Virus record (IMG/VR): IMGVR_UViG_3300044455_000006
Coordinates: 1-24,859 of that record
Length of the DNA: 24,859 bases
Direction: 5' to 3' (one strand)
DNA from: a virus
Taxonomy: Duplodnaviria > Caudoviricetes
Below are positions 5,274 to 23,124 of the stretch, one piece after another. The notes beneath the pieces are model-generated. The model ran no database searches, had not been told where the DNA came from, and worked only from the letters and a program-made list of their open reading frames with translations. How positions within the stretch are numbered: position 1 is the stretch's first letter; each line of letters begins with the position of its first letter. The translations under genes and the position numbers were made by a program.

Positions 5274-5275
5274 CG

Positions 5276-5647: not shown

Positions 5648-5672
5648 TACTACCTCCTAAATGAAGTAGTAT

Positions 5673-5703
5673 AACGAGCGTAGGGTTGAACCCTACGCTC
5701 GTT
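5673..5703 (-). terminator. Stem-loop terminator/attenuator after the major tail gene (no U tract)
   Basis: AACGAGCGTAGGGTT-G-AACCCTACGCTCGTT, perfect 15-bp inverted repeat 6 nt after the stop codon. Confidence 0.75.
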
Positions 5704-5709
5704 GTATAA

Positions 5710-6270: not shown

Positions 6271-6320
6271 TTATTTCACCTCCCTTTTCTAAGAGAATGG
6301 GACCGACAGGCGTCTAGTCT

Positions 6321-6773
6321 TTAAGAAGACTGGACTGACAGAGGCGGCCCTGACGGAACTATCGTTAGTCGCACTGCGGCGACATAGCGGCTAGTTTCTT
6401 GCAACTTATCTGGAACGCGAGTAGCCCCCTGCTCCAGTTTGCAGTCAGAGATAAAGAGGCCAAAACCCCTGTAGTCACCCATTGACCGCATAAGACTTGC
6501 TAAGCAAATCTCACAAATATCTTTAGCGACAGAACGTCGCTCGGCGTAGACCATCAAATCAATTCGTACTCTTTGAATCTTTGGCCACGTCATACTGGCC
6601 CCCTCTTGGACGACTTCAATCCATCTATCATCGGGTTCATAGCCGACGAGATTTGTAGTGATAGTCAGAGGAGGATTAGGAGGGAAATGAGGTAGTTCTG
6701 GTGTGTCGTTCTGTAGGATATCTACAACAGCAGCTTCGGCATCTCCGAAGATAATCATTTCTGGTTGACCCAT
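6321..6773 (-). CDS. Tail terminator protein
   Basis: 150 aa; FGDAEAAV, RIDLMVYA, RVPD..SRY motifs; immediately upstream of the major tail gene. Confidence 0.75.
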   Translation of the reverse strand: MGQPEMIIFGDAEAAVVDILQNDTPELPHFPPNPPLTITTNLVGYEPDDRWIEVVQEGASMTWPKIQRVRIDLMVYAERRSVAKDICEICLASLMRSMGDYRGFGLFISDCKLEQGATRVPDKLQETSRYVAAVRLTIVPSGPPLSVQSS

Positions 6774-7132
6774 TACACACCACCCCCGACAACTTCTAAT
6801 CCATGAGTCAGGGGTTTATATCTCAGAACGAATGTATGTCCACCAGCTTGTGCACCGTATTCAACCCACACCGCAGCGGGGTCATCGTTGTATGCCTGAT
6901 AGAGCAACCCACGAGCACGTTGTAGTTTACGTACTCCGAATGAATTGATATACTTCGGTGGTGTGGTTTCGGATGTTCGCCATTCGTTATCTGGCCGTTG
7001 CTGTCGAATGAAGTCTGTGGCCGCTGCCGCTATGATGGCGTCGGCTCGACTCCTGACATACGCATCAGCCCTAGGATCAGTTTTAAGAATGGCGTCTAGG
7101 GCACCGGGGTAGACCTTCATAGAGAACGCCAT
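6773..7132 (-). CDS. Neck/tail completion protein (HK97 gp10-like)
   Basis: 119 aa; A.WVEYG motif; synteny. Confidence 0.7.
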   Translation of the reverse strand: MAFSMKVYPGALDAILKTDPRADAYVRSRADAIIAAAATDFIRQQRPDNEWRTSETTPPKYINSFGVRKLQRARGLLYQAYNDDPAAVWVEYGAQAGGHTFVLRYKPLTHGLEVVGGGV

Positions 7133-7486
7133 CTATCCCTCCCTAACCCTAGCAATCACCTGAACATATCTTTCTAAGCCACTGAATCGACGCCACGTAC
7201 CGTGATGGCCGAAGACGTCGTAGATGTTGTCTTCGAAGACGATTCGATCCGTTACTTCAAATCTCGTACCAGGGGGAGCGAAGATGCGGATTGCAGTCCT
7301 AGCAAACTCTCTGTCGCGATTCTCTTCGAGGTTAAGCTTCTCGGCCAACGGGAAGGGTTGGACGTTACAGTTTCCTACAACAGTCTCGACGGCGTTATCC
7401 CAGTCACGGTATTTACTGCCGTCTCTAGGATCGGTTAAGAGAGCGGCACGCTGGACGGTGATGGTGTCATTACCTAGGGGTCGCAT
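7133..7486 (-). CDS. Head-to-tail stopper/adaptor
   Basis: DW.NA..T..CNVQP, DRI.F..YDV.G and C-terminal REG; ATG 7486 preferred (SD GGGGTG) over GTG 7495. Confidence 0.78.
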   Translation of the reverse strand: MRPLGNDTITVQRAALLTDPRDGSKYRDWDNAVETVVGNCNVQPFPLAEKLNLEENRDREFARTAIRIFAPPGTRFEVTDRIVFEDNIYDVFGHHGTWRRFSGLERYVQVIARVREG

Positions 7487-7498
7487 ACCCACCACCCC

Positions 7499-8092
7499 TT
7501 AAAGTGTCGGGAGTATATTAGAGACGTTACTATCTCGGTAACCGAGACGCCATGAACTATAAACTGAACTATATCGATCTAGAACATCTTTCGAGAGAGA
7601 TACGACCGTCACCGAACCTTCATCGGTTGGTTTACTGTAAGCTTCAGTGACATCGCCAACAGTGAAGCTTGTTAGTGTTCCCGTCGCTCCGAGACCCAAG
7701 ACGTCACTGATAGCTTGTGTAGCTACATGCTTGATATCATCGGGTACGGCGGAATAGCCATGAGTGTAAGTAACATCTACAACCTCATTGGGATCCAGTC
7801 TGGACAGTGTAGTCAAACCATCCCAAACCCATGATGTCTCAGCGTTTGACCGTACGTTCTTTACGGAAGATACGGTAGATACTGGACCACCCCCTAGATC
7901 GATCATGCCGTAGTAATCGGCTTGATAGCGAACGACATCCCCCGTCTTCGTCTCAAAAGAGACGTCAACGTAGTCATTGATATAGGCACTGACAGAGTTT
8001 ATATACCACTGCCATTGTGCTGCTTCTGCTCCCGATTCGGGGCCTCTACCAATAACAACAACTATGTCTTCTAGGTCTAATAGGGCAACCAC
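7499..8092 (-). CDS. Head-to-tail connector/adaptor
   Basis: 197 aa; VTYTHGY..VPDDIK and LDRY motifs; synteny. Confidence 0.82.
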   Translation of the reverse strand: MVALLDLEDIVVVIGRGPESGAEAAQWQWYINSVSAYINDYVDVSFETKTGDVVRYQADYYGMIDLGGGPVSTVSSVKNVRSNAETSWVWDGLTTLSRLDPNEVVDVTYTHGYSAVPDDIKHVATQAISDVLGLGATGTLTSFTVGDVTEAYSKPTDEGSVTVVSLSKDVLDRYSSVYSSWRLGYRDSNVSNILPTL

Positions 8093-8109
8093 ACATACTC
8101 ACCCCCTCG

Positions 8110-9087
8110 TTACTTGATTTGTTCAATGAATTCGATGAAGTCTCTGATCTCGCGCTGGCTCATCTCGTATAGCTTGTTCGCATTAATCGTCGCTTCCCAC
8201 GAAGCTAGACGGTAATTCTCTAGGAGATCTTCTAGAGCAAGAACCCAATCGACAGTCTTACCAAAAGGAATCTGTCGGTAGCCTATGGCGTGTTCCATCA
8301 GACCAGGGGCAGTAGAGGTAAGCGAAGGAATCCCTGAGCACGCAGCCTCAATCGGAACACGACCCCAACTCTCAATCTCGCTAGGGGCGAGTATGATCTT
8401 CGACTTCCTATAGACATCGAGAATGTTGTTAGTGTGTTCTATGATCGTGACATTGGGGAGGTCGCGAACTACTTGGTTGCCGTAGGCACCCTTGACTCCT
8501 AGGAACTTCTCACCGGGAAACGCCACCGCGAGTTGATAGAAAGTGTCGTAGCCTTTGTTGTAAAAGGGCTCGTCGCCATCGGAGAGATTGACGAGAGTGA
8601 TATATTCTCGACTACTATCGACTTCATATCTTCTCGGATCTACCGGAGGGTGGAGGGTAACCGCAGGTTTCACTGTCGACATCTTCGATTCGATAGATTC
8701 ACGAACGTGATTCGAGTTATAGACGAGATAGTCGTTGTAGCGGAGTGCGAGATTCGTCGAGTACTCGGTGTTGTTATGAACCAACTGAACTGTAGGTTTT
8801 CCCAGCTTCAGACCGATATACCACGCTCTCTGAGCACATTCAAACTGAGTTAGGATTAAGTCGAAGTTAGGGAAGTAGAGTTCAGGGTCACGTTTCGATG
8901 CGAACGCCTGCACCATCACACCATCTAAGACGTAGCTACCACTGCCGTCCTTAAATGGACGTGAAGCAAGAGCGGTGGCTTTATGTCCAGCTCGCTTGAC
9001 AATACCGAGGATGTCGTGTAGGGTGGTCTCGGCGCCTGCGTTATGGCCACTGCCCATATAAGTGTGAGCGTAAGCTAGAATGTGCAT
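8110..9087 (-). CDS. Glycosyltransferase family 4 (GT-B fold)
   Basis: GAE N-terminal motif, NKG, ESWGRVPIEAACSGIP (E-x7-E). Confidence 0.9.
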   Translation of the reverse strand: MHILAYAHTYMGSGHNAGAETTLHDILGIVKRAGHKATALASRPFKDGSGSYVLDGVMVQAFASKRDPELYFPNFDLILTQFECAQRAWYIGLKLGKPTVQLVHNNTEYSTNLALRYNDYLVYNSNHVRESIESKMSTVKPAVTLHPPVDPRRYEVDSSREYITLVNLSDGDEPFYNKGYDTFYQLAVAFPGEKFLGVKGAYGNQVVRDLPNVTIIEHTNNILDVYRKSKIILAPSEIESWGRVPIEAACSGIPSLTSTAPGLMEHAIGYRQIPFGKTVDWVLALEDLLENYRLASWEATINANKLYEMSQREIRDFIEFIEQIK

Positions 9088-9109
9088 CTTCTATCCTAGG
9101 GGGTTGTAA

Positions 9110-9295
9110 GTGATAACATGGATGAAGTATAAGTATAGATGCTTGAAGCCAATGGGACGCTTCAAGAGCGCCAGCGCAAATTCCAACAAGAAAGAAAAGA
9201 AGATCGGAAGTCACAAGGGAGTCGCAACTGAGCGACTACAGGAGAGAGTGTTGGTTATCAGCGGCACTGGAAAGAGAAAGTGGACTTGGCGCTAG
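9110..9295 (+). CDS. Small basic hypothetical protein
   Basis: 61 aa Lys/Arg-rich ORF whose TAG abuts the endonuclease ATG; no recognisable motif. Confidence 0.3.
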   Translation: MITWMKYKYRCLKPMGRFKSASANSNKKEKKIGSHKGVATERLQERVLVISGTGKRKWTWR

Positions 9296-9898
9296 ATGTA
9301 TGAGGATGAAGAAGTCTGGAAAGAGATCCCTGAGTGGGAGGGATATGAAGTCAGCACGTGGGGAAGGGTTCGAAGTTATTGGTTGGTCGGTAAGAGATTC
9401 CGACCTCGCCAAAAGACCACCGATCCCCTTATATTAGATCCCAATCATAAGGGTCACTTTCTGCTGGGAGGCAAAGATAATCATAGGCGTAGAGCACCTG
9501 CTGGTCTCATAAGGGAATCATTTGGTCTCTTTCGATGCCCCTACTGCTATATTTTGCTGCCAATAGAACAAAGTGGCAAAAATAATAAAGGGCATCGAGA
9601 ATGGCAATGTCTAAAATGTAGAACTGCGCGTGGTACTCAATGGCGCTATGGCATGACCAATAAACAAAAACAAGAAATGCTTTGGGCACAAGGAGGCGAA
9701 TGTATTGGAGGATGCAACAGAAAACCAACCGTCGTCCACCATGACCATAACTGCTGTGATAATACACCTACGTGTGGTGGTTGCAATCTTGCAATAACTT
9801 GCCAACCATGTAATCTAGTCCTGAACAAAAATATAAATAGCGAAATCCTATTCAATCTAGCAGAAGCACAAGCCAGATTTGAGAAGAGTACCCTTTGA
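9296..9898 (+). CDS. Free-standing endonuclease: NUMOD4 plus recombination endonuclease VII-like domain
   Basis: EVWKEIP..EGYEVSTWGRVRS (NUMOD4); CxxC pairs; RYGMT..AQGGEC..HHDH.CC..C..C..C..CN (EndoVII-like); antisense and AT-rich. Confidence 0.88.
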   Translation: MYEDEEVWKEIPEWEGYEVSTWGRVRSYWLVGKRFRPRQKTTDPLILDPNHKGHFLLGGKDNHRRRAPAGLIRESFGLFRCPYCYILLPIEQSGKNNKGHREWQCLKCRTARGTQWRYGMTNKQKQEMLWAQGGECIGGCNRKPTVVHHDHNCCDNTPTCGGCNLAITCQPCNLVLNKNINSEILFNLAEAQARFEKSTL

Positions 9899-9915
9899 GT
9901 GGGCACTCTTCTCAA
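9879..9915 (-). terminator. Stem-loop terminator after the major capsid gene
   Basis: TTGAGAAGAGTGCCC-ACTCAAA-GGGTACTCTTCTCAA; 15-bp stem with a G-U pair on the minus strand (A-C mismatch on plus). Confidence 0.75.
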
Positions 9916-9921
9916 GATCAA

Positions 9922-10914
9922 CTAGCTAGCACCTACAGGTCGCAAAATGCCAAAGGGGAATGTTCCACCAAGAGCTTTCACAGGGGTAGGAACTGCGTAA
10001 CCGACACGCATCACGGCACGGAGAATCTTACCGTCTTGCTGCATCGCGTTGTAAACGACGACGCCTGAGTCATCACTGATAACACCAGAATCGAATACCT
10101 GGAAGCTCATGTCCTGACGGACACCAACAACTAGATTATCCCATTCGCCAGCGATAGCGAATGCTTCAGTGTCATCCCATGCGCCATTACCAACCTCGTA
10201 ATAAGGTTCGTTGTAGAGCGCACTAGTGGAGTTAGGACCATCAGGACCGTTGAGAGTGCTGTTGTATACAGGCTGACCCGTAGTGTCACGGACCTTGGTT
10301 AGACGCCAGCGGAAGCCCTTACGAGCCGCCCAGCCGGTTGTGTCATAACCATCTTTCGCTAGGTCTTCAGCGACAGCCGCTAGGTCCAAGCCGACATCGT
10401 TATAAGAACCTGAAAGAGTAGTACCGAGGGTAACGAAGTTACCAGCGGAAACTGCACCACCAACTAACCCACCAACGGGACCGGAGAAGCCCGCAGGGGG
10501 GGTACCGTCACCGAAAAATACAGCCTGGTCGATTTTCTTAGCGAAAGCTCGACTGACCTCTTTACGGATCTCGCCCCAACCAATAGTTGAGTCGTCTAGC
10601 CACGCATCCGGTACAACAACCAACACAGCAAGCTCGTCTGCGGTTAGGTAGACGTTATCCCACGTGAGGTTCGTGGTCTGCTTACGCTTGATGTCCTTAG
10701 CGGCCTGTGATACACCATCGATCCAGAATGCGTCCGCAAAGGTTTTAAGAACCGGGATACGGTGCTGACGGGCCGGCATCCGCTTGATCTGACCGAGGCG
10801 TAGAACCGCTGAACCTTCGTAGGTATCAGCTAGGATCTCATTAGCAACAGTCTCGGGAATTTCGCGAGCGACCTGCGACGTACCTGAACGTGTAACTACA
10901 TCATTATATGCCAT
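9922..10914 (-). CDS. Major capsid protein (HK97 fold)
   Basis: 330 aa; IPETVANEI..SAVLRL, AFAKKIDQAVFFG, GVRQDM, NAMQQD..LRAVMRVGYAV; follows scaffold; strong SD. Confidence 0.95.
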   Translation of the reverse strand: MAYNDVVTRSGTSQVAREIPETVANEILADTYEGSAVLRLGQIKRMPARQHRIPVLKTFADAFWIDGVSQAAKDIKRKQTTNLTWDNVYLTADELAVLVVVPDAWLDDSTIGWGEIRKEVSRAFAKKIDQAVFFGDGTPPAGFSGPVGGLVGGAVSAGNFVTLGTTLSGSYNDVGLDLAAVAEDLAKDGYDTTGWAARKGFRWRLTKVRDTTGQPVYNSTLNGPDGPNSTSALYNEPYYEVGNGAWDDTEAFAIAGEWDNLVVGVRQDMSFQVFDSGVISDDSGVVVYNAMQQDGKILRAVMRVGYAVPTPVKALGGTFPFGILRPVGAS

Positions 10915-10971
10915 TTCGTTTCACCACCTTTCATTTAAGAGTTGTAGAGTTAATCGTGGTAAATGGAGGGC

Positions 10972-11583
10972 CTACTTTCGACCACGGGGTGCTGGGCCTC
11001 TGCCCATCAGTTCTTCAAAGAAGTCTGTGCCAGCGGTCTTAGGCTGAGGTCCGACAGGGGTGCCGCGACTCTTGCCTCCGAAAAGGGTGGTATCGGTAGG
11101 TGTCTCGTAGGTTCGCTTTTCCTTCTTGGTATTCGCGAGGCGTGACGCCTTATCCCAAATTTCATCTACGGTTTTACCATCAATGAGATCGATGAGGTCA
11201 TCATCGACATCATATTCAAGTGCAGCAGCCTTGATGATGTGTTGTCTTGCAACTTCATCTGCATGTGCGGCCCGCGCATCAGCTTCGGATACTTTCTTGA
11301 GGTTATCCCGCTTCCAACTCTTGAGACCTTCAACTTCCTTCTCTAGTTCTTTCTTCGCACGGCGGTGGTTACCGTTCTCGTGACGGAGTCTCGTCACCAT
11401 GCCTTTGAGGATATCGGTGTCTTTGATAGCGTCTAGAGACGCATTGATAGAGTCGTTGGTGTTACCAGCGACCTCTTCGAGTTCGTCTTCTGTTTCAGTG
11501 GTTGCACTAGTATCAGTGTCAGTGGACGTATCGAGGACTTTTTCCTCTACAGTCTCCGTTGACTCCCGGTCTTCGTCAGACAT
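10972..11583 (-). CDS. Capsid scaffolding protein
   Basis: 203 aa; acidic N-terminus, LRHENGNHR coiled coil, G.T.DEI..A..L motif; between portal and capsid. Confidence 0.88.
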   Translation of the reverse strand: MSDEDRESTETVEEKVLDTSTDTDTSATTETEDELEEVAGNTNDSINASLDAIKDTDILKGMVTRLRHENGNHRRAKKELEKEVEGLKSWKRDNLKKVSEADARAAHADEVARQHIIKAAALEYDVDDDLIDLIDGKTVDEIWDKASRLANTKKEKRTYETPTDTTLFGGKSRGTPVGPQPKTAGTDFFEELMGRGPAPRGRK

Positions 11584-11614
11584 CTTGTACTTCCTTTCAT
11601 CCGCCAGGGATTAG

Positions 11615-13183
11615 TTATTTACTGCTAGTCTTTGAACTAGCAGGGGTCTTTGTTGAGGCACCAGAGCCGGCAGAAACTGCCTTCACTCTCTGTTGCTCTA
11701 CGGCTTGTTCGTGTGCTCTCTGAGCGAGTTCATCTTCACGAGCCTCTGTTTCGGCTTGCAACCTATCTCGTTCTTCGACAGCGAATGCAATCTGATCCGG
11801 TGAATAACCGCAGTCTTCCATTGCTATCTCTAGCGGAATACCAGCGGCGACTAATTTGTTAAGCGCATCGGCTTTCTCGGTTAGCTTTCTCTTTTCGGCA
11901 TCAGCCCAAAGAGTGAACGCATCAGCGTCTCTAGCACGATTGTCTTTCTTATATTTGAACGCCAACTTCAACACTCGTTCGTAGAACCAACCCATCGCCT
12001 CTTGACGGTTATTAACCTTCGACACCAGACCAGTTTGGTCTTGAGTCAGGGTGTCACCAGAGACATTAACCATCCTGTTCATCAAGTACGACGCAGGGGT
12101 TTGAGTCATTGCAGCGAGATCGCCTACGTCATCACGAATAGCTTTCAACAGCTTCTCGATATCGGCGGTGTCGAAGTCACCGAAGTGAGCATCAGGGTTA
12201 GCAGTAACCCACAGAACATCTGCACCAGGATCGAACGGTGGACGCTTCTTACCTTTAGCTCCCGGTGGAGTGATACCAGTCGCCCATCTCTGGCGGTACG
12301 CCTGACTCTTAGAAATGATTAGTCGATCGAGTACGGTATGGTTGATACGGTCCTGGACATCCAATACACCTTCATGCTCGGCTCTACCGAGATCACCGAA
12401 TGCTGGCTGCCAGTTGCCTTCAATAAGCGGAACTTCACCTAACGGATTTGGTGATACATCCACCAACTCGAAGTTGCTGGCCGCAGGCGTCATAGTAAAC
12501 TGCTTCGTCAACACAGCATCTTGTTCGAAGGAGTTCTCTAGATATTTACGACTAGTGAATGTATAGATCTCATCGGGCAAATAAAGGACAGCAATCACCG
12601 CTTCAATGGTGTCGTCTTGCCACATCTTCAATCCAGCCATCGACCTCGTAATCCGGTATGGGTCTCTCTCGACCGCACACATCCTCGGATCTTCGATACA
12701 GATAACAGGTTCGCCATCAGGATCTTTAGGGTCGGTGTCAGTGATGAGCGCGTAGCACAACCCGAATGTCGCAGCGGTGTTGATATTGATTTGACTCTGG
12801 TAGTCCATGTCGTTGTAGTCCCAGATTCGTTTAGCGTCTTTGTCCGCTTGACCAGCTTCACCAAATCGAAAACCTTTAACTCTCATGCGCTGAGTTGTAG
12901 CTTTGATAACTAGCTCGCAGTAGTTCGTTCTGGCTTTCGTTTGAAGGTCCTTTAACGCTTTGACGTAACGGTAGTCGGCGTTAGGTAATGGGTGATCCCC
13001 GAGCGCATATCGTTCGAGGATGTCGTAACGTTCATATCTATCTAGAAGTTTCTGAATTAATCTCTGTAGCCACCACCAAGGGTCTCCCGGCTCATAGTAA
13101 TTTCGAGTTCTCTTAGAATTCGGGGTGCCGAAAAACGGATTATCAGGAGATAGTCTTAGAGGTGCCGAATAAGGCTGAGTCAA
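11615..13183 (-). CDS. Portal protein (SPP1 gp6-like)
   Basis: 522 aa; RY..G.H, N.C.LV, QDRIN, QRWATG, NVSGD motifs; TTG start with SD AAGGAGGT. Confidence 0.95.
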   Translation of the reverse strand: MTQPYSAPLRLSPDNPFFGTPNSKRTRNYYEPGDPWWWLQRLIQKLLDRYERYDILERYALGDHPLPNADYRYVKALKDLQTKARTNYCELVIKATTQRMRVKGFRFGEAGQADKDAKRIWDYNDMDYQSQININTAATFGLCYALITDTDPKDPDGEPVICIEDPRMCAVERDPYRITRSMAGLKMWQDDTIEAVIAVLYLPDEIYTFTSRKYLENSFEQDAVLTKQFTMTPAASNFELVDVSPNPLGEVPLIEGNWQPAFGDLGRAEHEGVLDVQDRINHTVLDRLIISKSQAYRQRWATGITPPGAKGKKRPPFDPGADVLWVTANPDAHFGDFDTADIEKLLKAIRDDVGDLAAMTQTPASYLMNRMVNVSGDTLTQDQTGLVSKVNNRQEAMGWFYERVLKLAFKYKKDNRARDADAFTLWADAEKRKLTEKADALNKLVAAGIPLEIAMEDCGYSPDQIAFAVEERDRLQAETEAREDELAQRAHEQAVEQQRVKAVSAGSGASTKTPASSKTSSK

Positions 13184-13199
13184 TTCCTACCTCCTTTGC

Positions 13200-14738
13200 T
13201 TAAAATGTATACAGAGCATCGTCAACCTTCGGTTTCAGTGCGCCCTCTTCGATAGCTACAGTCGCGGCTTCGAAAGCAAGGACGGCGGCTTGAGCGCCAA
13301 AGATGTATCTAGTCGTATACTTAGTCTCTTGTCGAAGGACGTAGCCTTGCGGCACTTCTTCGGTATGACTTCCAAGGACATGTCTTGATATATCTTCATG
13401 TAGATAAAGGACTCGTCGACTGTCAACAGCAGATTCAAATTGCTCTACTGCTCTAGCCATCTTTGTTTTGTTAGCGATCCAAAACTCTTCAACAACGGTG
13501 TCGTGGTCGACGTACCACCTACCTATGATGTCTTGGTATTGTGCGGGGTCGGCAAACAACTTAGCGACGTTGTATTTGCTGAGAGTCTTTCGAACGGTGT
13601 CGTCGACTTCCTTAAACGGAACTTCCCAACCTTTCTTAGTACCGGGATTTTCCCACCAGCCCAACCTGAATAGAGCGCCATCTTCAAGACGGCAAGCAAC
13701 CAACGCAGCACCACGGATCGTGTTACCTTTGAACCCGAGGGCGATAACATCACTCTTACGAAGCTTCCGCTTCTCAGCTAGCTTCGCTTCCCTGCAATTC
13801 TTCCAAACCTCGGGAGTTAACCACGTCGTATGACCTTCGATGTGTTGATTGAAGTAGAAGCGTCGGGCGACGTGCTCTCTTGTCATCAATACCTTTTTGT
13901 AAATGTTTTCGAGATCGACCCAACTGGCGTCGCCGTATACATACCTCAACGCTTCCATCGACTTCTCTTGGTCTTTGACATCCTCGACAAAAACCCCTCG
14001 GGTGTCGAAGAGGTAGCCTGAATCGGGACCTTCGCCACTTAGACCTTTGTAGTAGTCGTTGAAGTGTTGTTCGGCTACAGATGCCTCACCAGGAGCGTGA
14101 GCGTTAGTTGTTGCAACCCAACGACGATTCATCTTGCCTAGGTTTCTGTCGAGAGCTTCGAACAACTCTGGACCCTTTTCAGCGGGTACCCATAGACCAG
14201 TCTCGTCCATCACGACAAACGTCGCACGGTTACCCTCACGACCCCTCGGAGACGCCGTAACCTTCTCAAGCTTCCTACCACCAGGATAAGTGATCTTAGA
14301 GAGGTTAATGTCCAACATCGGGTAGTGATACATCACTGGGCCGTTGGCTAGCATCTGGATAACGAGATCCATCGTGTTATTTGCTTGGCTATCTGAAATA
14401 GCTGCAATCTGAACCAGTGGCGAGTAGTCGGATCGACCAATCGGTCTACCGTCTTTACTCCAACAGTCAAAGATGGTTGGACCCATTAACTCCGTACAAC
14501 TGATAGCCGCCAGTAGAGGAGACTTACCCCAGCCCTTCGGCCTCTCAAGAATACCGTTTTGGTATATAAATCGTCCATACGCATCTACAGCGTAGAACCA
14601 CAAAATAAAGAGTGCTTGCTCATCTGTGTACTGCCAAAGTTGTCCCGCAGTTTTACCATCAGGTTGAGCAAGCATCTTACTGCCCCAGTCTAGAACTCCC
14701 CAACCAAGAGTTCTCTCAGGAATTCCTTCTGGAAGCAT
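13200..14738 (-). CDS. terL: Terminase large subunit (nuclease motifs degenerate)
   Basis: RTLGW N-terminus, Walker A PKGWGKS, Walker B VVMDE, TTNA coupling motif, RRFYFNQ; directly upstream of portal. Confidence 0.95.
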   Translation of the reverse strand: MLPEGIPERTLGWGVLDWGSKMLAQPDGKTAGQLWQYTDEQALFILWFYAVDAYGRFIYQNGILERPKGWGKSPLLAAISCTELMGPTIFDCWSKDGRPIGRSDYSPLVQIAAISDSQANNTMDLVIQMLANGPVMYHYPMLDINLSKITYPGGRKLEKVTASPRGREGNRATFVVMDETGLWVPAEKGPELFEALDRNLGKMNRRWVATTNAHAPGEASVAEQHFNDYYKGLSGEGPDSGYLFDTRGVFVEDVKDQEKSMEALRYVYGDASWVDLENIYKKVLMTREHVARRFYFNQHIEGHTTWLTPEVWKNCREAKLAEKRKLRKSDVIALGFKGNTIRGAALVACRLEDGALFRLGWWENPGTKKGWEVPFKEVDDTVRKTLSKYNVAKLFADPAQYQDIIGRWYVDHDTVVEEFWIANKTKMARAVEQFESAVDSRRVLYLHEDISRHVLGSHTEEVPQGYVLRQETKYTTRYIFGAQAAVLAFEAATVAIEEGALKPKVDDALYTF

Positions 14739-14759
14739 CTCACCCTCCCGGGGTTTGAA

Positions 14760-15893
14760 TTAGGGGCCATCACGGATGATAAAAGCATCAGAGCTATTCT
14801 GAATACTCAACCCCTCACGGTTTCTAATGATGAATGGAGGACTCTCAAGTGGTTCAGGGACGAAGTTAGAAGCGTCTCCTGCAACAACCCCAACAATCGC
14901 TAACCCACTACCAGTTTTGATAAAGGCGACCGGGCCGTTAGCGGTCAAAATCACCGCTGCGTTACCGGCGTTACCAACAACAGCTTTCGTAACTGTTGGA
15001 ATATTTGAGACAGCGGTAACTTGGGTGTTGGCGGCGTTAGCGCGTAGGCTGATACTAGGTTGATTAGCTATAGCCGCGAGCGCAGCGACACCTGAACCCG
15101 TAGCTACAGTCGCTTTAGCCGCGTTCGCAACGACAGTTACCGTAGCGAAGCCAGCATTAGCGTTGGTCATATTCGCGGTACTGATCGTTGGATCGAAAGC
15201 TACACCGTTTATAGGTGCGGTAGCGGGGGTTGTCGAAACTCTTCCGGTTACACCATTAGCGGTGGCGGTTACCGCTGCGTTACCGGCGGTAGCTGAGATT
15301 GCTTTAGCCGGTGGATTCGAAGTAGTTGTAACTGGGGCTGTTGTTGGTCCTGGACTAGATTTGCTAGTAGTACCATGAGCTGTCGCGGTGACGGCAGCAT
15401 TACCGCTATTCAACCGGACGCTTACACCGGGTTGGTTAGCGATGGCAGACAACGCAGCGTTGCCCGCAGGAGCAAACACCTGAGAAGCCGTAGATATAGT
15501 AGCGTCATTAGCGACAGCGCCTGCGGCGGCATTCGCCGCATTAACTAATACAGTCTTAGTGGGTTGATTAGAAGCAGTCGTAACCGCCGAGTTACCCGCA
15601 CCCAATTGGGTGGTAAGGGATGGGTTGTTAGCTGTGGCTGTTGTCGCAGCATTCCCCGCACCGGGTTTAACCGTTATCGTAGGATTATTAGCGGTAACGG
15701 TAACGACAGCGTTTCCTGTCCCTCTAACATCCGTCTTACCCGAAGTCTGATTCGAAACGACCGTTGCCTCGGCGACACCGGCGTTGGCGTTAGTGAATCC
15801 AGCGTCACCGCCACTAGGAGGCGTAATAATTCTCGCTCTTACCGGCGAAGCAGTAGGTTGACTAGAGGTGGGGTGACGAACGAGTTGGCTCAT
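14760..15893 (-). CDS. Ala/Thr/Asn-rich repeat protein, putative fibre or decoration protein
   Basis: 377 aa, about 15 repeats of ~20 aa (AGNAAVTATANxP). Confidence 0.75.
   Translation of the reverse strand: MSQLVRHPTSSQPTASPVRARIITPPSGGDAGFTNANAGVAEATVVSNQTSGKTDVRGTGNAVVTVTANNPTITVKPGAGNAATTATANNPSLTTQLGAGNSAVTTASNQPTKTVLVNAANAAAGAVANDATISTASQVFAPAGNAALSAIANQPGVSVRLNSGNAAVTATAHGTTSKSSPGPTTAPVTTTSNPPAKAISATAGNAAVTATANGVTGRVSTTPATAPINGVAFDPTISTANMTNANAGFATVTVVANAAKATVATGSGVAALAAIANQPSISLRANAANTQVTAVSNIPTVTKAVVGNAGNAAVILTANGPVAFIKTGSGLAIVGVVAGDASNFVPEPLESPPFIIRNREGLSIQNSSDAFIIRDGP
14860..15791 (-). repeat. Coding tandem repeat, ~60-nt unit, ~15 degenerate copies
   Basis: Protein-level alignment by eye; exact 18-mer ACCGCTGCGTTACCGGCG at 14953 and 15271. 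Confidence 0.8.
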
Positions 15894-15911
15894 ATCTTAC
15901 CCCCAATCAAT

Positions 15912-17090
15912 CTACCACCTTGACATCACAAGATAAGGTCTAGGATTCCCCTCTTTCACTGCAACTTCAGCATAAATCGTATGAATACCTATATCAGGAG
16001 TAGCGTCACCACTAAAACCTATTCGGAACTCTAGGGCATCTAATTCAGCTTGAGTATTGATATCCGCAACAGTAAGCATCTTACAAACCCAAGCGGGAAC
16101 CGTTGTGCTATTATCGAAATTAGCATCGGCCACCGCGAATAAAATCGTCTCCGTACTGCCATTCCAGCTTCTAAATCCTATGGTTGCGCCAGTTGTGGTT
16201 GTCGCCCATCCACAAGCTCGCATCTCTGCCGCAGTTACAACTTCCCCTTGAGCTAGAGCGTAGCTAGTCATAGGAACTTGAACGTAGTCAGAACCAGCGA
16301 GATTTATCTGTACGAAACCATCAGCGGAAGCACCAATAGTCGGCGGAATCTCATCGATATTATTTCGTGCTGTCGTAGCATTCCAAGCGGCGAGAGTACC
16401 GTTAGCGGTGAAGGTGTTGAAGTTTCCAGCAGTGCCACTTAGCGTCACCGTACCCGCAGGATCTGGTGATAGCATCACGACTTTATGTCGTCCTATCGGA
16501 CGGCTGATGGTGTCTGCCGAATCTGTTTCGATATAAAGGTCGTCCATTAACCACGCGGGGTTGTTTGTACTACCAGCAAATTCAATCTGACTGGTAATAG
16601 TCGTGGCACCCGAGCCAGTTGCTTGCCCAACAAATACGTCATCAACCCATAGGTCAACAGTCCTAGTGGCACCCGAGATGTCGAAATAAAGTTCGACCCA
16701 GTGCCACGCTCCCGTAGATATTGCACTACTAGATACTGCACTACCGCCGACGTTCGCCGAGAGAACTCCGGTCGAACTAATAAGTAGTTGAACGACGGTG
16801 GTGTCAACGCGGACTATATTCATAGTACCAGCAGGAAGAGAATCGTAACGTAACCCAAACGCTATTAACCCTCGATTCTGCGAAGCACCTAGGGTGTCAG
16901 GCGTCCATGCGGCCGAGCCACTAAGAGCAAGGGCTAAACAATAAGTACCATTACGAGGCGTAGTCGTTACGGGGACAACATTTGCTGCGCCCGTTCCGAA
17001 CCTCGCATCCATAATCTTATTTCCGATGTTACCGGTGACAATGCCGGCGCCTGTACCAAACTCAAACCCAGTAACAACACGAACCGGCAT
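15912..17090 (-). CDS. Putative structural protein with LamG/concanavalin-like domain
   Basis: 392 aa; TGFE N-terminus, TGAWHWVEL..LWVD..MDDLY pattern typical of LamG-like folds. Confidence 0.7.
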   Translation of the reverse strand: MPVRVVTGFEFGTGAGIVTGNIGNKIMDARFGTGAANVVPVTTTPRNGTYCLALALSGSAAWTPDTLGASQNRGLIAFGLRYDSLPAGTMNIVRVDTTVVQLLISSTGVLSANVGGSAVSSSAISTGAWHWVELYFDISGATRTVDLWVDDVFVGQATGSGATTITSQIEFAGSTNNPAWLMDDLYIETDSADTISRPIGRHKVVMLSPDPAGTVTLSGTAGNFNTFTANGTLAAWNATTARNNIDEIPPTIGASADGFVQINLAGSDYVQVPMTSYALAQGEVVTAAEMRACGWATTTTGATIGFRSWNGSTETILFAVADANFDNSTTVPAWVCKMLTVADINTQAELDALEFRIGFSGDATPDIGIHTIYAEVAVKEGNPRPYLVMSRW

Positions 17091-17125
17091 CGATCACACC
17101 CTCTTTCTCTCCTAGAGTTCTACGG

Positions 17126-17431
17126 TTATGCAATCTCCTCGTATTCTACGGTGATAGTAAGTGTAAATCCTTCATTACCCTGATCTTGGACATAATGCAC
17201 ATGATACCCAGGATCGCCATAGGCGGTCTCGGTAACCTTCAGGCCACTATCTCCCCTTATATCTACACCGACAGAATCACCCTGGAATGAGAAGAAACCC
17301 CCTACTGGTAGATTAGTGAGGTCGTCACCCCCATCGCCATATCGTGCTTCGACACCAATCCAGGTATTAACGCTCCCCGGACCTGGATTAGCAGGAACTA
17401 TCTCTTGAATAGTATATGTCTTGGTTGCCAT
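17126..17431 (-). CDS. Hypothetical protein, possibly structural
   Basis: 101 aa, fills the gap, SD AAGGTGG. Confidence 0.7.
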   Translation of the reverse strand: MATKTYTIQEIVPANPGPGSVNTWIGVEARYGDGGDDLTNLPVGGFFSFQGDSVGVDIRGDSGLKVTETAYGDPGYHVHYVQDQGNEGFTLTITVEYEEIA

Positions 17432-17446
17432 ATAAACCCCACCTTC

Positions 17447-17884
17447 TTATTCTTCCCACTCGATATAGTAATCAACAATCTGACCAGTACCAGTGGGACA
17501 AATAATCCCGACACCAGCCGAGGTCAGAGCGTCTATCTGAAAACCACGGCCGCCGAAGGTCCAAATGACACCTGAGCCGATGGCGGCACCGAGAGATGCC
17601 TGCCTCACCGAGGCTGCGACCGCACCATCAGCGGTATGACCAGCAAAACCCGTTGCAACAGCGGTTTGAACAACATCATCTAAGCAGACTTCCGTCAATC
17701 CAGCACCGACGCCAGTGGCGTTAGTGAACCTACAGAGCGCTATGGCTAATCCAGTTGTAGTTGTATTGAAGACGCCAATCTCTATGATCTTTGGGCGAAT
17801 TGCAGTGGTTGCAAAAACACTCGCAGCGGCGCGGACGGCAGTGGGTGCTACAGTAGAGCGCCCAGCGACAGCAAATCTAGCCAT
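17447..17884 (-). CDS. Putative virion structural protein (beta-rich)
   Basis: 145 aa Ala/Gly/Thr-rich, ends YIEWEE; SD AGGGGG. Confidence 0.72.
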   Translation of the reverse strand: MARFAVAGRSTVAPTAVRAAASVFATTAIRPKIIEIGVFNTTTTGLAIALCRFTNATGVGAGLTEVCLDDVVQTAVATGFAGHTADGAVAASVRQASLGAAIGSGVIWTFGGRGFQIDALTSAGVGIICPTGTGQIVDYYIEWEE

Positions 17885-17895
17885 CTATGCCCCCT

Positions 17896-18402
17896 TTACA
17901 GAGCGAATCGGATGACACCGTTAGTGTGCCAGACGATCGTGAACGTACCACCAGTAACGGAGTTTGCGCCGCCGAAGTAGTTGTAGCAGAAACCTTGGTC
18001 AGCAACTGGCGTAGCGATAGAATCTGCATACACCAAACAGCCGAAGGCATTAAGAATATCCGCAGTCGCACCAGAAGCGGTGTCGTTGGCATCAAGTTTG
18101 ACGAAATCAGCAACAGATCTATCGACAGTCCTGGATGCAAGGTTCACCCCACCAGCAGGCCAGTCAGCACCGCCACCAGAGGTGTCGATGACCTCGTTAC
18201 CCGTAAGAACCCATTGGCCTACGTTGTACGCAGAGTTAGCTGCGGTTACATCGTTATCTGGGGTGATATCGTTGTCATAGAGCGCAGCCTTGACGCTAGT
18301 CGCCTCAACCCAGTCCATACTCGTAGTGCCCTGGTTTTCAACGACACCTTCAACTAGGTCTGCAATGTAAGCCCTAAAGACTCTTGAATCGGTCCAAGCC
18401 AT
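17896..18402 (-). CDS. Putative virion structural protein (fibre/collar module)
   Basis: 168 aa; KAALY, NEV..W.AGG, DA.D, GTFTIVW..NG motifs seen in phage structural cassettes; SD GGGAGGT. Confidence 0.75.
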   Translation of the reverse strand: MAWTDSRVFRAYIADLVEGVVENQGTTSMDWVEATSVKAALYDNDITPDNDVTAANSAYNVGQWVLTGNEVIDTSGGGADWPAGGVNLASRTVDRSVADFVKLDANDTASGATADILNAFGCLVYADSIATPVADQGFCYNYFGGANSVTGGTFTIVWHTNGVIRFAL

Positions 18403-18405
18403 TTT

Positions 18406-18708
18406 CTACCTCCCTTTTATTTCAGCAGTAGGAGCGTAGACAACGCAGTCTTGGCCGTCTTCCCGCTCTATAATTACGTTCATAATCGGACGCCCTTCGG
18501 CATCCGTCTGGACATCTTCTTTACCGATGTAATCTTCTCGTTCGTTGGAAGTGATGTTTACTTTCTGGCCCTCTTCAACCATCGGAACGGTAAGCATCTT
18601 CATCCCCTTACAGAGATGATATTCCTGGTGATTAGGAACAAAAACCCTCAGAGCTGTCGTGGGGCACTTAGGACATACCCAACGAACCATTCGTCTATTA
18701 AGTATCAT
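18406..18708 (-). CDS. Small putative Zn-binding protein
   Basis: CPKC..HLC, REDYIG..GRP.M..DG.DC.VYAP. Confidence 0.72.
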   Translation of the reverse strand: MILNRRMVRWVCPKCPTTALRVFVPNHQEYHLCKGMKMLTVPMVEEGQKVNITSNEREDYIGKEDVQTDAEGRPIMNVIIEREDGQDCVVYAPTAEIKGR

Positions 18709-19036
18709 TAACTAGTGCCCCTCGCATCAAAGTTTTGTTAGTTGGACTTGTAATTTGTAAACGATGTTTTCCTAGACCCTGACCGAATAGAGTCAAATCA
18801 GCGACAGCTATATGGAGAGTTATTTTTCCTGCTAGAGCATCAACGACTAACCGGCCGTTAGCTACGGTTGCGGAGATAGTCACTGCGCCAATCGTGAAAC
18901 TCCAGTCGAGGACGTAACCGGTGAGGTTGACCGCTGCGCCGTTGGAATCTTGGTGGAAGACTACGAAGTCGAGGTCGTCGGTAGTATCAACAAGCAACGC
19001 CTGCCGACTGCCCGTTAGGATTGTCAATGATGTCAT
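18698..19036 (-). CDS. BppU-N/Ig-like structural domain protein
   Basis: D.NG.AVNLTGY..G.ITL.I..D..HRLQI..TLMRG pattern; SD GGAGGT. Confidence 0.6.
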   Translation of the reverse strand: MTSLTILTGSRQALLVDTTDDLDFVVFHQDSNGAAVNLTGYVLDWSFTIGAVTISATVANGRLVVDALAGKITLHIAVADLTLFGQGLGKHRLQITSPTNKTLMRGALVNDT

Positions 19037-19543
19037 CTAGACCTCCTTTGCGGCTTTCTTCAACAGCCGCTCGGCGTAATCGACAGCAGCAGTCGCTTCA
19101 CCTTCAATTCGCTTCTCAGCTTCATCCTCAGTCTGAGGGATGTTGATTTGTAGTTGAAGCTTCGCTCGGTCTTCCCAGGTAGCTCCGAACTTCGCTACAC
19201 GTTGACGTAGCTCAGCTAGTAATCCGACGAGAGTCGTACCGGCAATCGGTCTATTCTTAACTTTGAAGATTTCGTTGTGCGCTATTGCACACTCAATCAT
19301 GTACTGCCAGTCGGTATCGCCCATCAGTTTGGCTTGTGGAGATGTTCTCCAAATCCTCCACCACTCCCTAGTTTGGTCACACCACGTAACCCCAGGGATT
19401 TCAGGTAGGTCTATCCCACGGAGAGTGGGAACTTCGTCAGAGTCGATAATCGTTTTATCGAAGCGTTTTGGAATTCGATTAACTCTTTGGTCTTCATCTT
19501 TCGGCGGAAGTCCCTTGTAAACGATCTTGAACACCTCCTTCAT
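19037..19543 (-). CDS. terS: Terminase small subunit (actinophage type)
   Basis: W..T.EWW..WRTSPQA..DW and ELRQRVAKFGATWEDR motifs. Confidence 0.85.
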   Translation of the reverse strand: MKEVFKIVYKGLPPKDEDQRVNRIPKRFDKTIIDSDEVPTLRGIDLPEIPGVTWCDQTREWWRIWRTSPQAKLMGDTDWQYMIECAIAHNEIFKVKNRPIAGTTLVGLLAELRQRVAKFGATWEDRAKLQLQINIPQTEDEAEKRIEGEATAAVDYAERLLKKAAKEV

Positions 19544-20436
19544 TATCTAAATTTTTGTATGGCACGCTGCACACCGTCTTCTATTGAGATCTTTGGGGTA
19601 TAGATTTCATTCAACCGACTCGGGTCGCCAACTCGATAGAAAACTCCAGTTGGTTTGTCTGTAAGGTATGTGATGTCGCAGTCTGCGTCGCCCGTAAGAA
19701 CTTCATGAGCTAACATCATCAATTCACCCATCTCAGTGCCGATACCAGTGCAGAGGTTTACTGGACGACGTTCGTCGGCGTCATAAACCGCTAAAGCTCC
19801 GTTAACGACATCATCAATATGAATCCAGTCTCGGGTTTGACCTTTCGGCCCCCACACTTCAAACTCTCCACGAACTGCACGACGGAGGATCGACGGGAAG
19901 GGATAGTCAAATGATTGGTCTTCGGCGTATCCACTGAACGGCCTGACGACATGTACCCTCAAGCCATTCTCACCAGCTACTTTTGCTAACCGTTCGCCTG
20001 TGAGTTTCGCCCAACCGTAATTGGCATCAGGCATAATCTCTGGGAACCAAGGGTAAGGGTCAAGATCGATATGTTGCTCTTTTAAAGGCATAAAGTCATG
20101 CCAGGACTGTAGACTCGTTGGGTACGCAGCAGATGAAGAGAAATACAACACTGCTTTCTGGCGAGTGCGGAGAGCCCAGTCAAACATCGAACTATCTAAC
20201 AACGTATTCTCGATGAGAGCAGTGTTGCGACCATCAATCATCACTCGACCACCGACGACATAAGCACAGTGGACTACAAGGTCGAATCTATCGGTCCCTC
20301 GCTGAAAATATTTTATTGCGTCGTTACCATCAACGATATCGATGCTCAGAACTCTAAAGTTCCTATTTTCGAGTTCTTTGATGATGTGGCGTCCAACAAA
20401 CCCCATCCCACCCGTTACTAAGGCTTGTTTAGGCAT
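19543..20436 (-). CDS. NAD-dependent NDP-sugar epimerase/dehydratase (extended SDR)
   Basis: TGGMGFVG, SSSAAY, YGWAK (YxxxK), QTRDWIHIDD. Confidence 0.93.
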   Translation of the reverse strand: MPKQALVTGGMGFVGRHIIKELENRNFRVLSIDIVDGNDAIKYFQRGTDRFDLVVHCAYVVGGRVMIDGRNTALIENTLLDSSMFDWALRTRQKAVLYFSSSAAYPTSLQSWHDFMPLKEQHIDLDPYPWFPEIMPDANYGWAKLTGERLAKVAGENGLRVHVVRPFSGYAEDQSFDYPFPSILRRAVRGEFEVWGPKGQTRDWIHIDDVVNGALAVYDADERRPVNLCTGIGTEMGELMMLAHEVLTGDADCDITYLTDKPTGVFYRVGDPSRLNEIYTPKISIEDGVQRAIQKFR

Positions 20437-21013
20437 AGAAACTCTTCCCTAAGATAATTTGGTTCCAGTCAACACGACGATAATTCAAAATAGAGAAGTG
20501 TTCACCGATAAGCCGAGTAAAACCCTCTTCATCCCATGCCCAAATGTGTTCATGGACATCTTCACAGATATGTTCTCCGGAAGGTTCGTTATCTGGCGAA
20601 CTAGCAACAACATACTTCGAGTTTTTAGCAATCCACTCAACTGCACGATGTGGGTCTGCAAGGTGTTCGAGGACTTCAGTTACGACCGTCAACTCTCCCC
20701 ACTTCGGCTCGAAATCGGGGTCGTTGAAGATATCGGCGAACTGAGCAGTGACGCCACGCTCTTCCCAACCCTCTTGATTAGCGGGACAGAAGTCATAGCC
20801 CCAACTGGGTATGTCCTTTATCAAAGACAACAACCCACCATCACCACAACCGAGGTCAACCACCGACTTCGGACTAACACCGCGAAGCATTTTCGCGGCC
20901 ATAAACAACCGACCACGTTGCCAATCCTGTTCGAGATGGGGAGCGCGCTCACGGTTTTGGTGATATTCGAACGTTGACGGATAATTAGAACGCTGTAAGC
21001 GACGTTCAGTCAT
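20429..21013 (-). CDS. Class I SAM-dependent methyltransferase
   Basis: VVDLGCGDG and EVLEHL motifs; start moved to ATG 21013 (MTERRL), which overlaps the stop of the upstream small ORF. Confidence 0.88.
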   Translation of the reverse strand: MTERRLQRSNYPSTFEYHQNRERAPHLEQDWQRGRLFMAAKMLRGVSPKSVVDLGCGDGGLLSLIKDIPSWGYDFCPANQEGWEERGVTAQFADIFNDPDFEPKWGELTVVTEVLEHLADPHRAVEWIAKNSKYVVASSPDNEPSGEHICEDVHEHIWAWDEEGFTRLIGEHFSILNYRRVDWNQIILGKSFYA

Positions 21014-21113
21014 CTTCATCATCCCAACCCCAACTATCAAGATCACATTCACCCGTACAGCAGCAACATACACAATCTTCGCTGTCTTCTTCTTCGAATT
21101 CTGATTCGGTCAT
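21006..21113 (-). CDS. 35-aa acidic Cys-rich peptide
   Basis: Hand translation MTESEFEEEDSEDCVCCCCTGECDLDSWGWDDEDD; SD AGGA; fills the gap exactly with an ATGACTGA overlap. Confidence 0.6.
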   Translation of the reverse strand: MTESEFEEEDSEDCVCCCCTGECDLDSWGWDDEDD

Positions 21114-21125
21114 TTTCTATTCCTA

Positions 21126-21566
21126 CTAATTCATTAAAGTAATAATAAGTGAAAGAATAATACCGGCCATCGCTACAGTGCCTAAGATAAACTGCCAACT
21201 ACGGTCTGCGCCGGATACCCTACCCTGCTGAGAAGAGACGAAATCAGTAAGAGGTCTCATTGTGATGTCGACTTTGTCAGCCATCGCTTTCAACTCTTGC
21301 TGGGTGACGGCTTGCGCTACGAAATCGGCATGTTGCTTCAACAATCCGTTATGTTGTTCATCTTTGTAAGTCTGGATCTGTCGAGCAAGATCTAGCGCGA
21401 CTTTATCGGCCTCTTCTTTGATTTTTAGAGCCTTCTCTTCAGCATTCTTTACCTCGGTATACCTACGGTCTCGCTCCTCGTGGAATTTAATGTCTGCATC
21501 ACGGATATCTGATAGATATTCTTTCAGAGAGATTCTGGCGTCTACCCGCCTCTGCTTCTCCTTCAT
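21126..21566 (-). CDS. Coiled-coil protein with C-terminal transmembrane helix
   Basis: ATG 21566 overlaps the upstream TGA (ATGA), SD GGGGGTG; hydrophobic C-terminus FILGTVAMAGIILSLIITLMN. Confidence 0.8.
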   Translation of the reverse strand: MKEKQRRVDARISLKEYLSDIRDADIKFHEERDRRYTEVKNAEEKALKIKEEADKVALDLARQIQTYKDEQHNGLLKQHADFVAQAVTQQELKAMADKVDITMRPLTDFVSSQQGRVSGADRSWQFILGTVAMAGIILSLIITLMN

Positions 21567-22135
21567 CGACACCCCCATATTTGGAAACAGTAACCATTGA
21601 CTCGTAGTGGGTCGTCCCAAGGGTTAGCTTCTCTATATTCCAACTTCTGCCACCCTGCGTCCCCTAGCATCATTCCCATAGCTTCTTTATCCCAAGCCCA
21701 ATAGTGTTCTGGATTCCCATCCCACTGAAAAGAGTTAGGCGTTGATAGGACAAGATGACTCGCCTTCTGGCGAATCAACTTCAACACAGACTCGGGATCA
21801 TCAAGATGTTCAATCGTCTCGCATAAGAAGAAGACATCGACATCCGGTATCTCGTAGATAGTCTTCTCGATAGGACCACGAAATTCGTAGCCGGGTGAGT
21901 AGTCACCGAGATACCACTGTAACGTAGGAAACTCTTTAGCCCAGTGGCCGTCGCCGCAACTTAAATCAGCGGCAGTTGATATTCCACCTCGACACAAGAT
22001 GTCTTGAGCAACCGTTCTAGTAACTTGAATCCTACGGACGTGATCCTGCCAATCCGGTTGCATCTCCCAGTGAGAGCTATAGATTCTCTTCAACTCATCA
22101 GCCGGATACTCAGACCGACACCTTTCGCGGTACAC
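21563..22135 (-). CDS. Class I SAM-dependent methyltransferase
   Basis: ADLSCGDG, ETIEHL, LVLSTP, NPEHYWAW; start moved to GTG 22135, 6 nt after GGAGG. Confidence 0.85.
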   Translation of the reverse strand: MYRERCRSEYPADELKRIYSSHWEMQPDWQDHVRRIQVTRTVAQDILCRGGISTAADLSCGDGHWAKEFPTLQWYLGDYSPGYEFRGPIEKTIYEIPDVDVFFLCETIEHLDDPESVLKLIRQKASHLVLSTPNSFQWDGNPEHYWAWDKEAMGMMLGDAGWQKLEYREANPWDDPLRVNGYCFQIWGCR

Positions 22136-22919: not shown

Positions 22920-23124
22920 CTCTACTTACCTCCCGACCGAAAAGATTGATGATGTACTCTTGAGCATCCCGTAAGGTTTCGAAATGAGGAACCATTATAC
23001 AAATACGACACTTCGTTCGAAATTTAATTATCGTCGTTCCATTAGAAAGAGAAAGTGGATGTATCGAGTAACTGACGACATCCCCCACGACGATCTCACC
23101 ACTGATGGTGAGTATGCTATCCAT
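22885..23124 (-). CDS. Hypothetical protein
   Basis: 79 aa, fills the gap, start overlaps the upstream stop. Confidence 0.55.
   Translation of the reverse strand: MDSILTISGEIVVGDVVSYSIHPLSLSNGTTIIKFRTKCRICIMVPHFETLRDAQEYIINLFGREVSRDERVSQLYPLW

Follow-up and report, generated by a model that had tools for sequence, protein, structure and literature searches.

The window, by which we mean the whole stretch of DNA analyzed here, is a soil-phage record from IMG/VR of 24,859 bases (IMGVR_UViG_3300044455_000006) that is rated 43% complete and has a guanine-cytosine (GC) content of 0.49; evidence on replication and genome ends was drawn from relatives. Nearly all of its genes lie on the minus strand, and together they form a siphovirus late module in which the gene of interest encodes the large subunit of the terminase (TerL). 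A first-pass annotation made from the sequence alone had proposed that this TerL combines an intact motor with an apparently dead nuclease, and that the phage packages its DNA either from unit-length genomes or with a separate nuclease working in trans.

Motifs, residues, and fold of TerL

Translation of the TerL gene (positions 13200-14738, minus strand) revealed the Walker A motif PKGWGKS, the Walker B motif VVMDE, and the motif TTNA, confirming that the motor motifs are intact, together with the C-terminal strings LGFKGNTIRGAALVACR, FADP, and RYIFGAQAAVLAF (table 1). The Lys codon AAA (13728-13730) and the Phe codon TTT (13299-13301) that had been read in these strings are present as claimed, the latter encoding F480. 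TerLs of the HK97 / Terminase_1 type have four catalytic carboxylates: an Asp in strand 1, another Asp six residues further along, an Asp or Glu where strand 4 ends, and an Asp where the last helix starts. One of the four, D397, is kept in the window TerL, and the other three positions are occupied by K337, G343, and F480.

No Pfam family matched TerL at an E value of 0.1 or less, and a sequence search of solved structures using the single protein as a query returned no match. A search of solved structures with a profile of the clade described later had a sole match, the TerL of HK97 (PDB 6z6d), in which G-F-K is aligned to G-L-D and K-G-A-A to N-D-L-T of the HK97 motif GLD....NDLTALV; it is on the basis of this alignment that K337 and G343 are placed at the two Asp positions. 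An AlphaFold2 model of TerL (predicted local distance difference test score of 90.5), from whose secondary structure the positions on strands and helix listed in table 1 were taken, also has 6z6d as its best PDB match in a Foldseek search (E value 4.9e-23). Structures of the nuclease domain alone, from G20c and P74-26, are matched to the C-terminal part of TerL with a TMt of 0.61-0.65. We take the model positions of K337, G343, D397, and F480 to be the metal-ligand places of RuvC/RNase H-like TerL nucleases. Judged from sequence and model, the ASCE ATPase motifs are intact, the RNase H-like fold is present, and the canonical metal-binding site is lost, and the protein is predicted to be a packaging ATPase that looks to be in working order.

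Table 1. Coordinates of TerL features, of neighboring genes in the window, and of the candidate end site in relatives (contig coordinates)
Feature	Position	Strand	Remarks
TerL, 512 aa	13200..14738	-	phrog_9 (terminase large subunit), E 6e-55
Walker A PKGWGKS, residues 67-73	14520..14540	-	K68, G71, K72 invariant in 61 clade members
Walker B VVMDE, residues 175-179	14202..14216	-	E179 invariant, D178 at least 90% conserved (61 clade members)
C-motif TTNA, residues 210-213	14100..14111	-	N212 invariant (61 clade members)
Nuclease-like domain, residues ~328-512	13200..13757	-	Predicted fold retained, canonical catalytic set gone
K337 (AAA), first catalytic Asp position	13728..13730	-	End of strand 1; canonical D 66/66
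G343 (GGT), second Asp position	13710..13712	-	Starts strand 2; canonical D 66/66
D397 (GAC) of FADP	13548..13550	-	Sole canonical carboxylate retained; ends strand 4
Y478-I479-F480 at K-I/V-D motif	13299..13307	-	Start of last helix; canonical K 66/66, D 66/66
A492 at conserved Arg position	13263..13265	-	Canonical R 64/66
Small terminase subunit (TerS), Terminase_7	19037..19543	-	PF25673, E 6.6e-22; seven open reading frames between TerS and TerL
Portal	11615..13183	-	Immediately downstream of TerL; phrog_104, E 8e-104; SPP1_portal
NUMOD4 + endonuclease VII-like (His-Me finger), free-standing	9296..9898	+	Head module, between capsid and GT4 genes
Candidate cos block	L084:19440-19592 + L082:1-150; L088:15880-16000		~5.8 kb upstream of TerS; spans G001 ends, internal in G003

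The consensus of L5-like actinophage TerLs against which the first-pass annotation had noticed these replacements holds. The motifs LGFDG..(D)D.TALV.CR, ..DP/DV.., and (R/K)K(I/V)DA were found in 61 of 80 IMG/VR loci, in all 66 canonical rows of our tree, and in the TerLs of four cultured phages (P318, Success, Caron, and Liebe). In the canonical rows, D337, D343, D397, K478, and D480 are each present in 66/66 and R492 in 64/66, so that three acidic positions are indeed replaced in the window TerL (K337, G343, and F480), as are those of Y478 and A492. Among the 80 loci, 18 are noncanonical and one was too short for scoring; the 18 are all among those closest to the window TerL (44-68% identity). 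The canonical uncultured sisters share 44-48% identity with it, and the cultured phages of the phage collection reach 39% at most. When the window TerL was taken together with its 119 best relatives, position 337 was occupied by K in 82, D in 11, S in 10, V in 8, R in 8, and I in 1, and Asp was present at all four positions in only 11 of these 120 sequences. The other 109 of the 120 lack the Asp set.

To place these sequences phylogenetically, we used a tree of 186 sequences, which were obtained from 199 by removing locus open reading frames (ORFs) of 400 aa or less and rows with identical last 400 residues. All 120 noncanonical rows, each standing for a protein cluster (90% identity), group together in a single clade of uncultured actinobacterial phages, with a support of 0.969. 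This clade includes no canonical row, and its sister is a canonical group of five sequences (support of the parent node 1.0). In this clade, positions 337, 343, 397, 478, 480, and 492 are occupied by K/R/S/V (K in 86, R in 13, S in 10, and V in 9 of 120), G, D/N/E/A, Y, any residue, and A, respectively. Since these replacements are characteristic of 120 protein clusters in one clade, chance and sequencing error are excluded as their cause, the latter having been judged unlikely at the outset.

A search of 1.84 billion cluster representatives gave 1598 matches; among the best 150 of these, about a dozen are clade members. The first Asp is likewise missing from about eight more representatives, which belong to other lineages. 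More distant family members (31-38% identity) without it are P0135, P0147, P0154, P0218, P0182, P0234, P0253, and P0254 and the loci L103:1136-2620 and L161:1646-2806, and some of these distant TerLs retain the C-terminal Arg. The first Asp was probably lost more than once in this family, which suggests independent losses in other lineages.

Constraint on the former nuclease domain was compared between the clade and canonical TerLs. The ratio of mean pairwise identity in the C-terminal domain to that in the ATPase is 0.86 in the clade versus 0.87 in canonical sequences, whereas the positions of the former site have an entropy of 0.75-2.8 bits in the clade, with 2.81 bits at position 480, versus 0 in canonical sequences. 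The domain is still under constraint while the old active-site positions vary freely. A Lys or Arg occupies 337 or 343 in 104 clade members, and the residue at position 397 is acidic in 93 of these; it is acidic in none of the 16 members in which both positions lack a basic residue (93/11/0/16; Fisher's test 4e-13). Members with neither a basic nor an acidic residue fall into seven separate patches of the tree, and none of the four carboxylates is left in 27 of the 120 members. We infer that D397 is the salt-bridge partner of K337 and that the pair fills the former metal pocket. E418, W420, E461, and E490 are already found in the nearest canonical sisters; the residues that are truly new in the clade are E417, R442, Y478, Q/E483, and A492.

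Gene neighborhood, replication, and genome ends

The genes of the window are ordered as glycosyltransferases, methyltransferases, and an epimerase, TerS, seven ORFs, TerL, portal, scaffold, and major capsid protein, followed by a GT4 glycosyltransferase, head-tail connectors, the tail tube, chaperones, and a tape measure protein of 1211 aa. The window TerL accordingly lies in a head module with a TerS and next to the portal gene. The seven ORFs between TerS and TerL (14760-19036) encode proteins of 112, 100, 168, 145, 101, 392, and 377 aa for which family searches found no function; TerS stands immediately before TerL in most relatives, and in locus L006 part of the seven-ORF cassette lies upstream of TerS instead. 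A further gene of ~272 aa is present between portal and scaffold in six of nine canonical sister loci (L020, L021, L033, L035, L048, and L080) and in no clade locus. Four canonical sister contigs (L033, L035, L048, and L054) start 490-570 bases upstream of TerL and have TerS as their first gene, which is what cos ends next to TerS would lead one to expect.

On either side of the head genes (8110-9087 and 19543-24518) are several genes for glycosyltransferases and methyltransferases and one for an NAD-dependent epimerase, and the GT4 gene directly follows the capsid gene. Logan contigs of 48.6 kb and 45.8 kb cover window positions 4900-22736 and extend further past position 4900. Between 22700 and 24859, Logan contigs from the runs containing this phage are split into short variant pairs (0 versus 19-26 differences per 245-398 bases), unlike the remainder of the window, which is a single long Logan contig; this part has the look of a glycosyltransferase region that varies among strains.

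Three relatives with full head, tail, lysis, and replication modules have a completeness rating of 100%: G001 (59.6 kb), G002 (57.6 kb), and G003 (58.1 kb). Both G001 and G002 have genes for a DnaE-type polymerase, a DnaQ-like exonuclease, a DnaB-like helicase, a primase, a PD-(D/E)XK nuclease, and endonuclease VII; the annotations of these two genomes showed neither a protein-primed PolB nor a terminal protein or protelomerase. A large serine recombinase is encoded directly upstream of TerS in G001 and has a homolog in G003, that is, in two of the three complete relatives. On a Plantactinospora contig (L094), the GC content drops from ~0.71 to ~0.58 at a point some 1 kb ahead of TerL and immediately before TerS, and stays low for 36 kb up to the contig end, which is the picture of an integrated copy. 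Phage DNA of the clade has a GC content of 0.49-0.59, compared with 0.70-0.75 in the flanking Plantactinospora DNA (G011 contig 44, L169-L173). An assembly of a Micromonospora isolate carries a clade TerL on a 58,139-base scaffold (L095). Other genes observed in the relatives include one for a Tad2-like (anti-Thoeris) protein beside the left end of G001 (L082:870-1085) and one for a GGDEF diguanylate cyclase domain protein in G002 (L085:15145-15849).

The ends of G002 overlap exactly over 127 bases and, because 127 is a common assembler word size, we read this assembly as circular. G001 and G003 have identical gene order and different break points, making them circular permutations of each other, and inverted terminal repeats were not seen in the assemblies of the relatives. 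The last and first bases of G001 map to the same point in G003 within one base, and this point lies inside a noncoding block that is far better conserved than the surrounding DNA, which is 66-71% identical (candidate cos block in table 1). The motifs of this block are present solely in G001 and G003 among the loci examined; when sought in the window, they gave no match above chance. Together, these observations suggest that the phages are temperate, pass through circular or concatemeric intermediates, and, in the case of G001, have a fixed end site. With replication that probably proceeds through circles or concatemers and with ends that look cos-like, a cutting nuclease would still be needed.

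Candidate nucleases and explanations for the lost site

We lean toward an explanation in which TerL is a motor only and the genome ends are cut in trans. TerL would pump DNA by means of its intact ATPase and, throughout the clade, carry an RNase H-like domain devoid of the canonical metal-binding residues; this former nuclease domain would be retained as a structural part of the motor for portal docking, for DNA grip, and as a platform for partners, with the K337-D397 pair occupying the former metal pocket. The ends would be cut by a separate nuclease, the candidate being a small HNH (His-Me finger) protein that is found in all three complete relatives, and an HK97-like machine composed of TerS, TerL, and HNH would have handed all cutting to its accessory nuclease. 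That a separate nuclease does the cutting is, in our assessment, probable; that it is specifically this HNH, although it is the leading candidate, is a tentative assignment. Equally tentative is the fuller picture of a large and successful temperate actinophage lineage that packages cos-ended genomes with a noncutting terminase, a stand-alone HNH encoded apart, and a Lys-Asp-bridged TerL scaffold.

Apart from the clade TerL itself, no second terminase nuclease domain (Terminase_3C, Terminase_6C, or TerL_nuclease) was found in any of the five genomes G001-G004 and G006, three of which are complete, and the PHROG/Pfam annotation of G002 and G001 likewise contains no second terminase nuclease. 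The His-Me finger nucleases of the complete relatives comprise one to four genes of the endonuclease VII family and one small HNH (PF01844) in each genome. The HNH is orthologous across G001, G002, and G003 (44-50% identity) and is homologous to gp39 of Streptomyces phage Success (hhalign 99.1%, E value 1e-18), which is encoded ~1.3 kb upstream of the Success TerS, past a cluster of eight tRNA genes; a word-index search for further HNH relatives gave zero matches. There is precedent for accessory proteins in packaging: gp74 of HK97 is described as binding TerL and being essential in vivo (PMC13595911) and as stimulating cos cleavage (PMC13595911; PMC9410871), and HrdP of Skunavirus as essential for the completion of packaging (PMC12967558).

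The endonuclease VII-like genes adjoin TerL in G002, in L023, and in the canonical locus L018, lie inside the head module in the window and in L003, and are represented in G001 by a copy in the replication module only. Relatives hold one to six genes of the NUMOD4/endonuclease VII type at varying positions, and these genes look like mobile, free-standing homing endonucleases. The copy in the window (9296..9898) is likely a homing endonuclease and is a weak candidate for a trans-acting nuclease. A nuclease encoded in an adjacent gene was rejected: for the two ORFs of 377 aa and 392 aa that lie upstream of TerL, family searches gave no match and the Atlas returned only viral hypothetical clusters with low recognition, and the cassette stands beside TerL in only 2 of 18 clade sources.

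Several observations weigh against cutting in trans by the HNH. No PF01844 HNH is encoded within the 43%-complete window. The HNH gene of G001-G003 is part of the early/replication region, away from TerS and TerL and at a distance of 11-16 kb from the cos-like site, and the cos reading itself rests on the ends of one contig, that of G001. A comparison of gene content between the clade and G008, the only long canonical sister (77% complete), identified no clade-specific nuclease because both the HNH and the endonuclease VII families are also present in G008. Finally, the near-invariance of H453 (118/120) and the new fixation of E417 (116/120) next to E418 leave room for a rebuilt catalytic site within TerL.

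Such a site is the main rival explanation, and we consider it unlikely. Here, TerL itself would cut by means of residues in the same domain, for example, E417, E418, H453, and, where present, D397. E417 is specific to the clade, the nearest canonical sisters having an aromatic residue at this position, and in the model the E417/E418 pair is found where strand 5 ends, adjacent to the strand that bears D397 (strand 4). The retention of H453, the lack of a clade-specific trans nuclease among the genes compared, and a level of domain conservation equal to that of active relatives also speak for this explanation. However, five conserved active-site residues, including the Lys and the Arg, were lost jointly, and the residue at position 397 is nonacidic in 27 of 120 members and tracks its basic partner as expected for a salt bridge and unlike a metal ligand. 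In addition, E418, W420, E461, and E490 occur in canonical sisters as well and hence are not compensatory, and a Lys in the metal pocket would be expected to repel metal ions.

An explanation without any cutting, in which the phage would resemble phi29 in packaging intact a linear genome replicated at unit length and ending in terminal proteins or closed hairpins, is highly improbable. A precedent for a vestigial nuclease domain is provided by phi29 gp16 (PMC7672431). However, the relatives have a DnaE-type replicase, primase, and helicase with no match to PolB, terminal protein, or protelomerase in G001 and G002; a TerS is present; G001 encodes a serine integrase and one relative is integrated; and the assemblies are mutually permuted or circular, with the ends of G001 contiguous in G003 and no inverted terminal repeats seen. 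Thus, of the two packaging modes put forward in the first-pass annotation, that based on unit-length genomes finds no support in the complete relatives, whereas a separate nuclease working in trans fits them, and the predicted loss of the canonical metal site, which was its starting point, extends to the whole clade.

That the elements are decaying or defective and the dead site reflects degeneration is similarly improbable: 3 of 20 clade TerL genes, including the integrated Plantactinospora copy, are broken in the DNA coding for the P-loop, but the clade comprises 120 protein clusters (90% identity) with invariant ATPase motifs, its C-terminal domain is under the same constraint as in canonical relatives, three genomes are rated 100% complete with full modules, and the window phage reaches word depths of 29 and 23 in two Logan runs, possibly its own source sample, and recurs elsewhere at low depth (Logan contigs).

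The broken TerL genes (L002:9690-10200, L023:9940-10500, and L094:9940-10500, the last being the same as L170:6030-7649) are all interrupted exactly at the Walker A DNA and by three different events, namely the insertion of a single base, of 6 bases with an in-frame TAA, and of a 33-base palindrome with a TAG. The Walker A coding site is reportedly an intein/homing hot spot in mycobacteriophage TerL, and many relatives of ~800-1200 aa match TerL in two stretches that are split near residue 70 or 180. The breaks could be repair scars of attack by a homing endonuclease, or decay.

Comparison with known packaging systems

In textbook tailed-phage packaging, TerL both cuts and pumps DNA. To our knowledge, phi29 is the one accepted exception, avoiding cutting through replication of unit-length genomes. 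A motor-only TerL with cutting in trans would, if correct, represent a natural split of cutting and pumping in a lineage that has a TerS, integrates, and makes concatemers; a literature search, supplements excluded, turned up no account of a phage lineage that combines a TerS with a nuclease-dead TerL. The clade also bears on the question, posed as open in PMC12967558, of what makes an HNH nuclease necessary in many cos phages in addition to TerL. The Micromonospora and Plantactinospora assemblies with clade members offer testable systems, and the clade is a warning for annotation in that the label "terminase large subunit" does not always denote a nuclease.

The window TerL is similar to phi29 gp16 and asccphi28 gp11 in that the ATPase is intact and an RNase H-like fold lacks the catalytic residues, and the asccphi28 motor is among its fold matches (7jq6 and 7jqp), with E values of ~1e-4 compared with 5e-23 for HK97. 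However, systems of the phi29 type have no TerS, use a packaging RNA (pRNA), and package unit-length protein-primed genomes, whereas the clade has a TerS, DnaE-type replication, integrases, and circular or permuted assemblies. The cultured actinophages P318 (Thermobifida), Success (Streptomyces), Caron (Microbacterium), and Liebe (Arthrobacter), whose TerLs share 36-39% identity with that of the window, have the gene order TerS-TerL-portal-scaffold-capsid in common with it, but they keep D, D, D, and K-x-D.

The best match to the window TerL, both by sequence profile and by fold, is HK97 gp2 (6z6d). The likeness extends to the arrangement of TerS, TerL, and portal in one module and may extend to an HNH nuclease, a homolog of which is present in the complete relatives, and to defined ends, of which one relative has a cos-like example. 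The two systems differ in that the HK97 TerL keeps the catalytic Asp residues and cuts with the help of gp74, whereas the window TerL has K, G, Y, F, and A at the conserved positions, and in that the HNH of the HK97 type adjoins the terminase genes across the cos site, whereas the HNH of G001-G003 does not. As far as sequence comparison can tell, the window TerL descends from and works like TerLs of the HK97 type, minus their defining catalytic feature.

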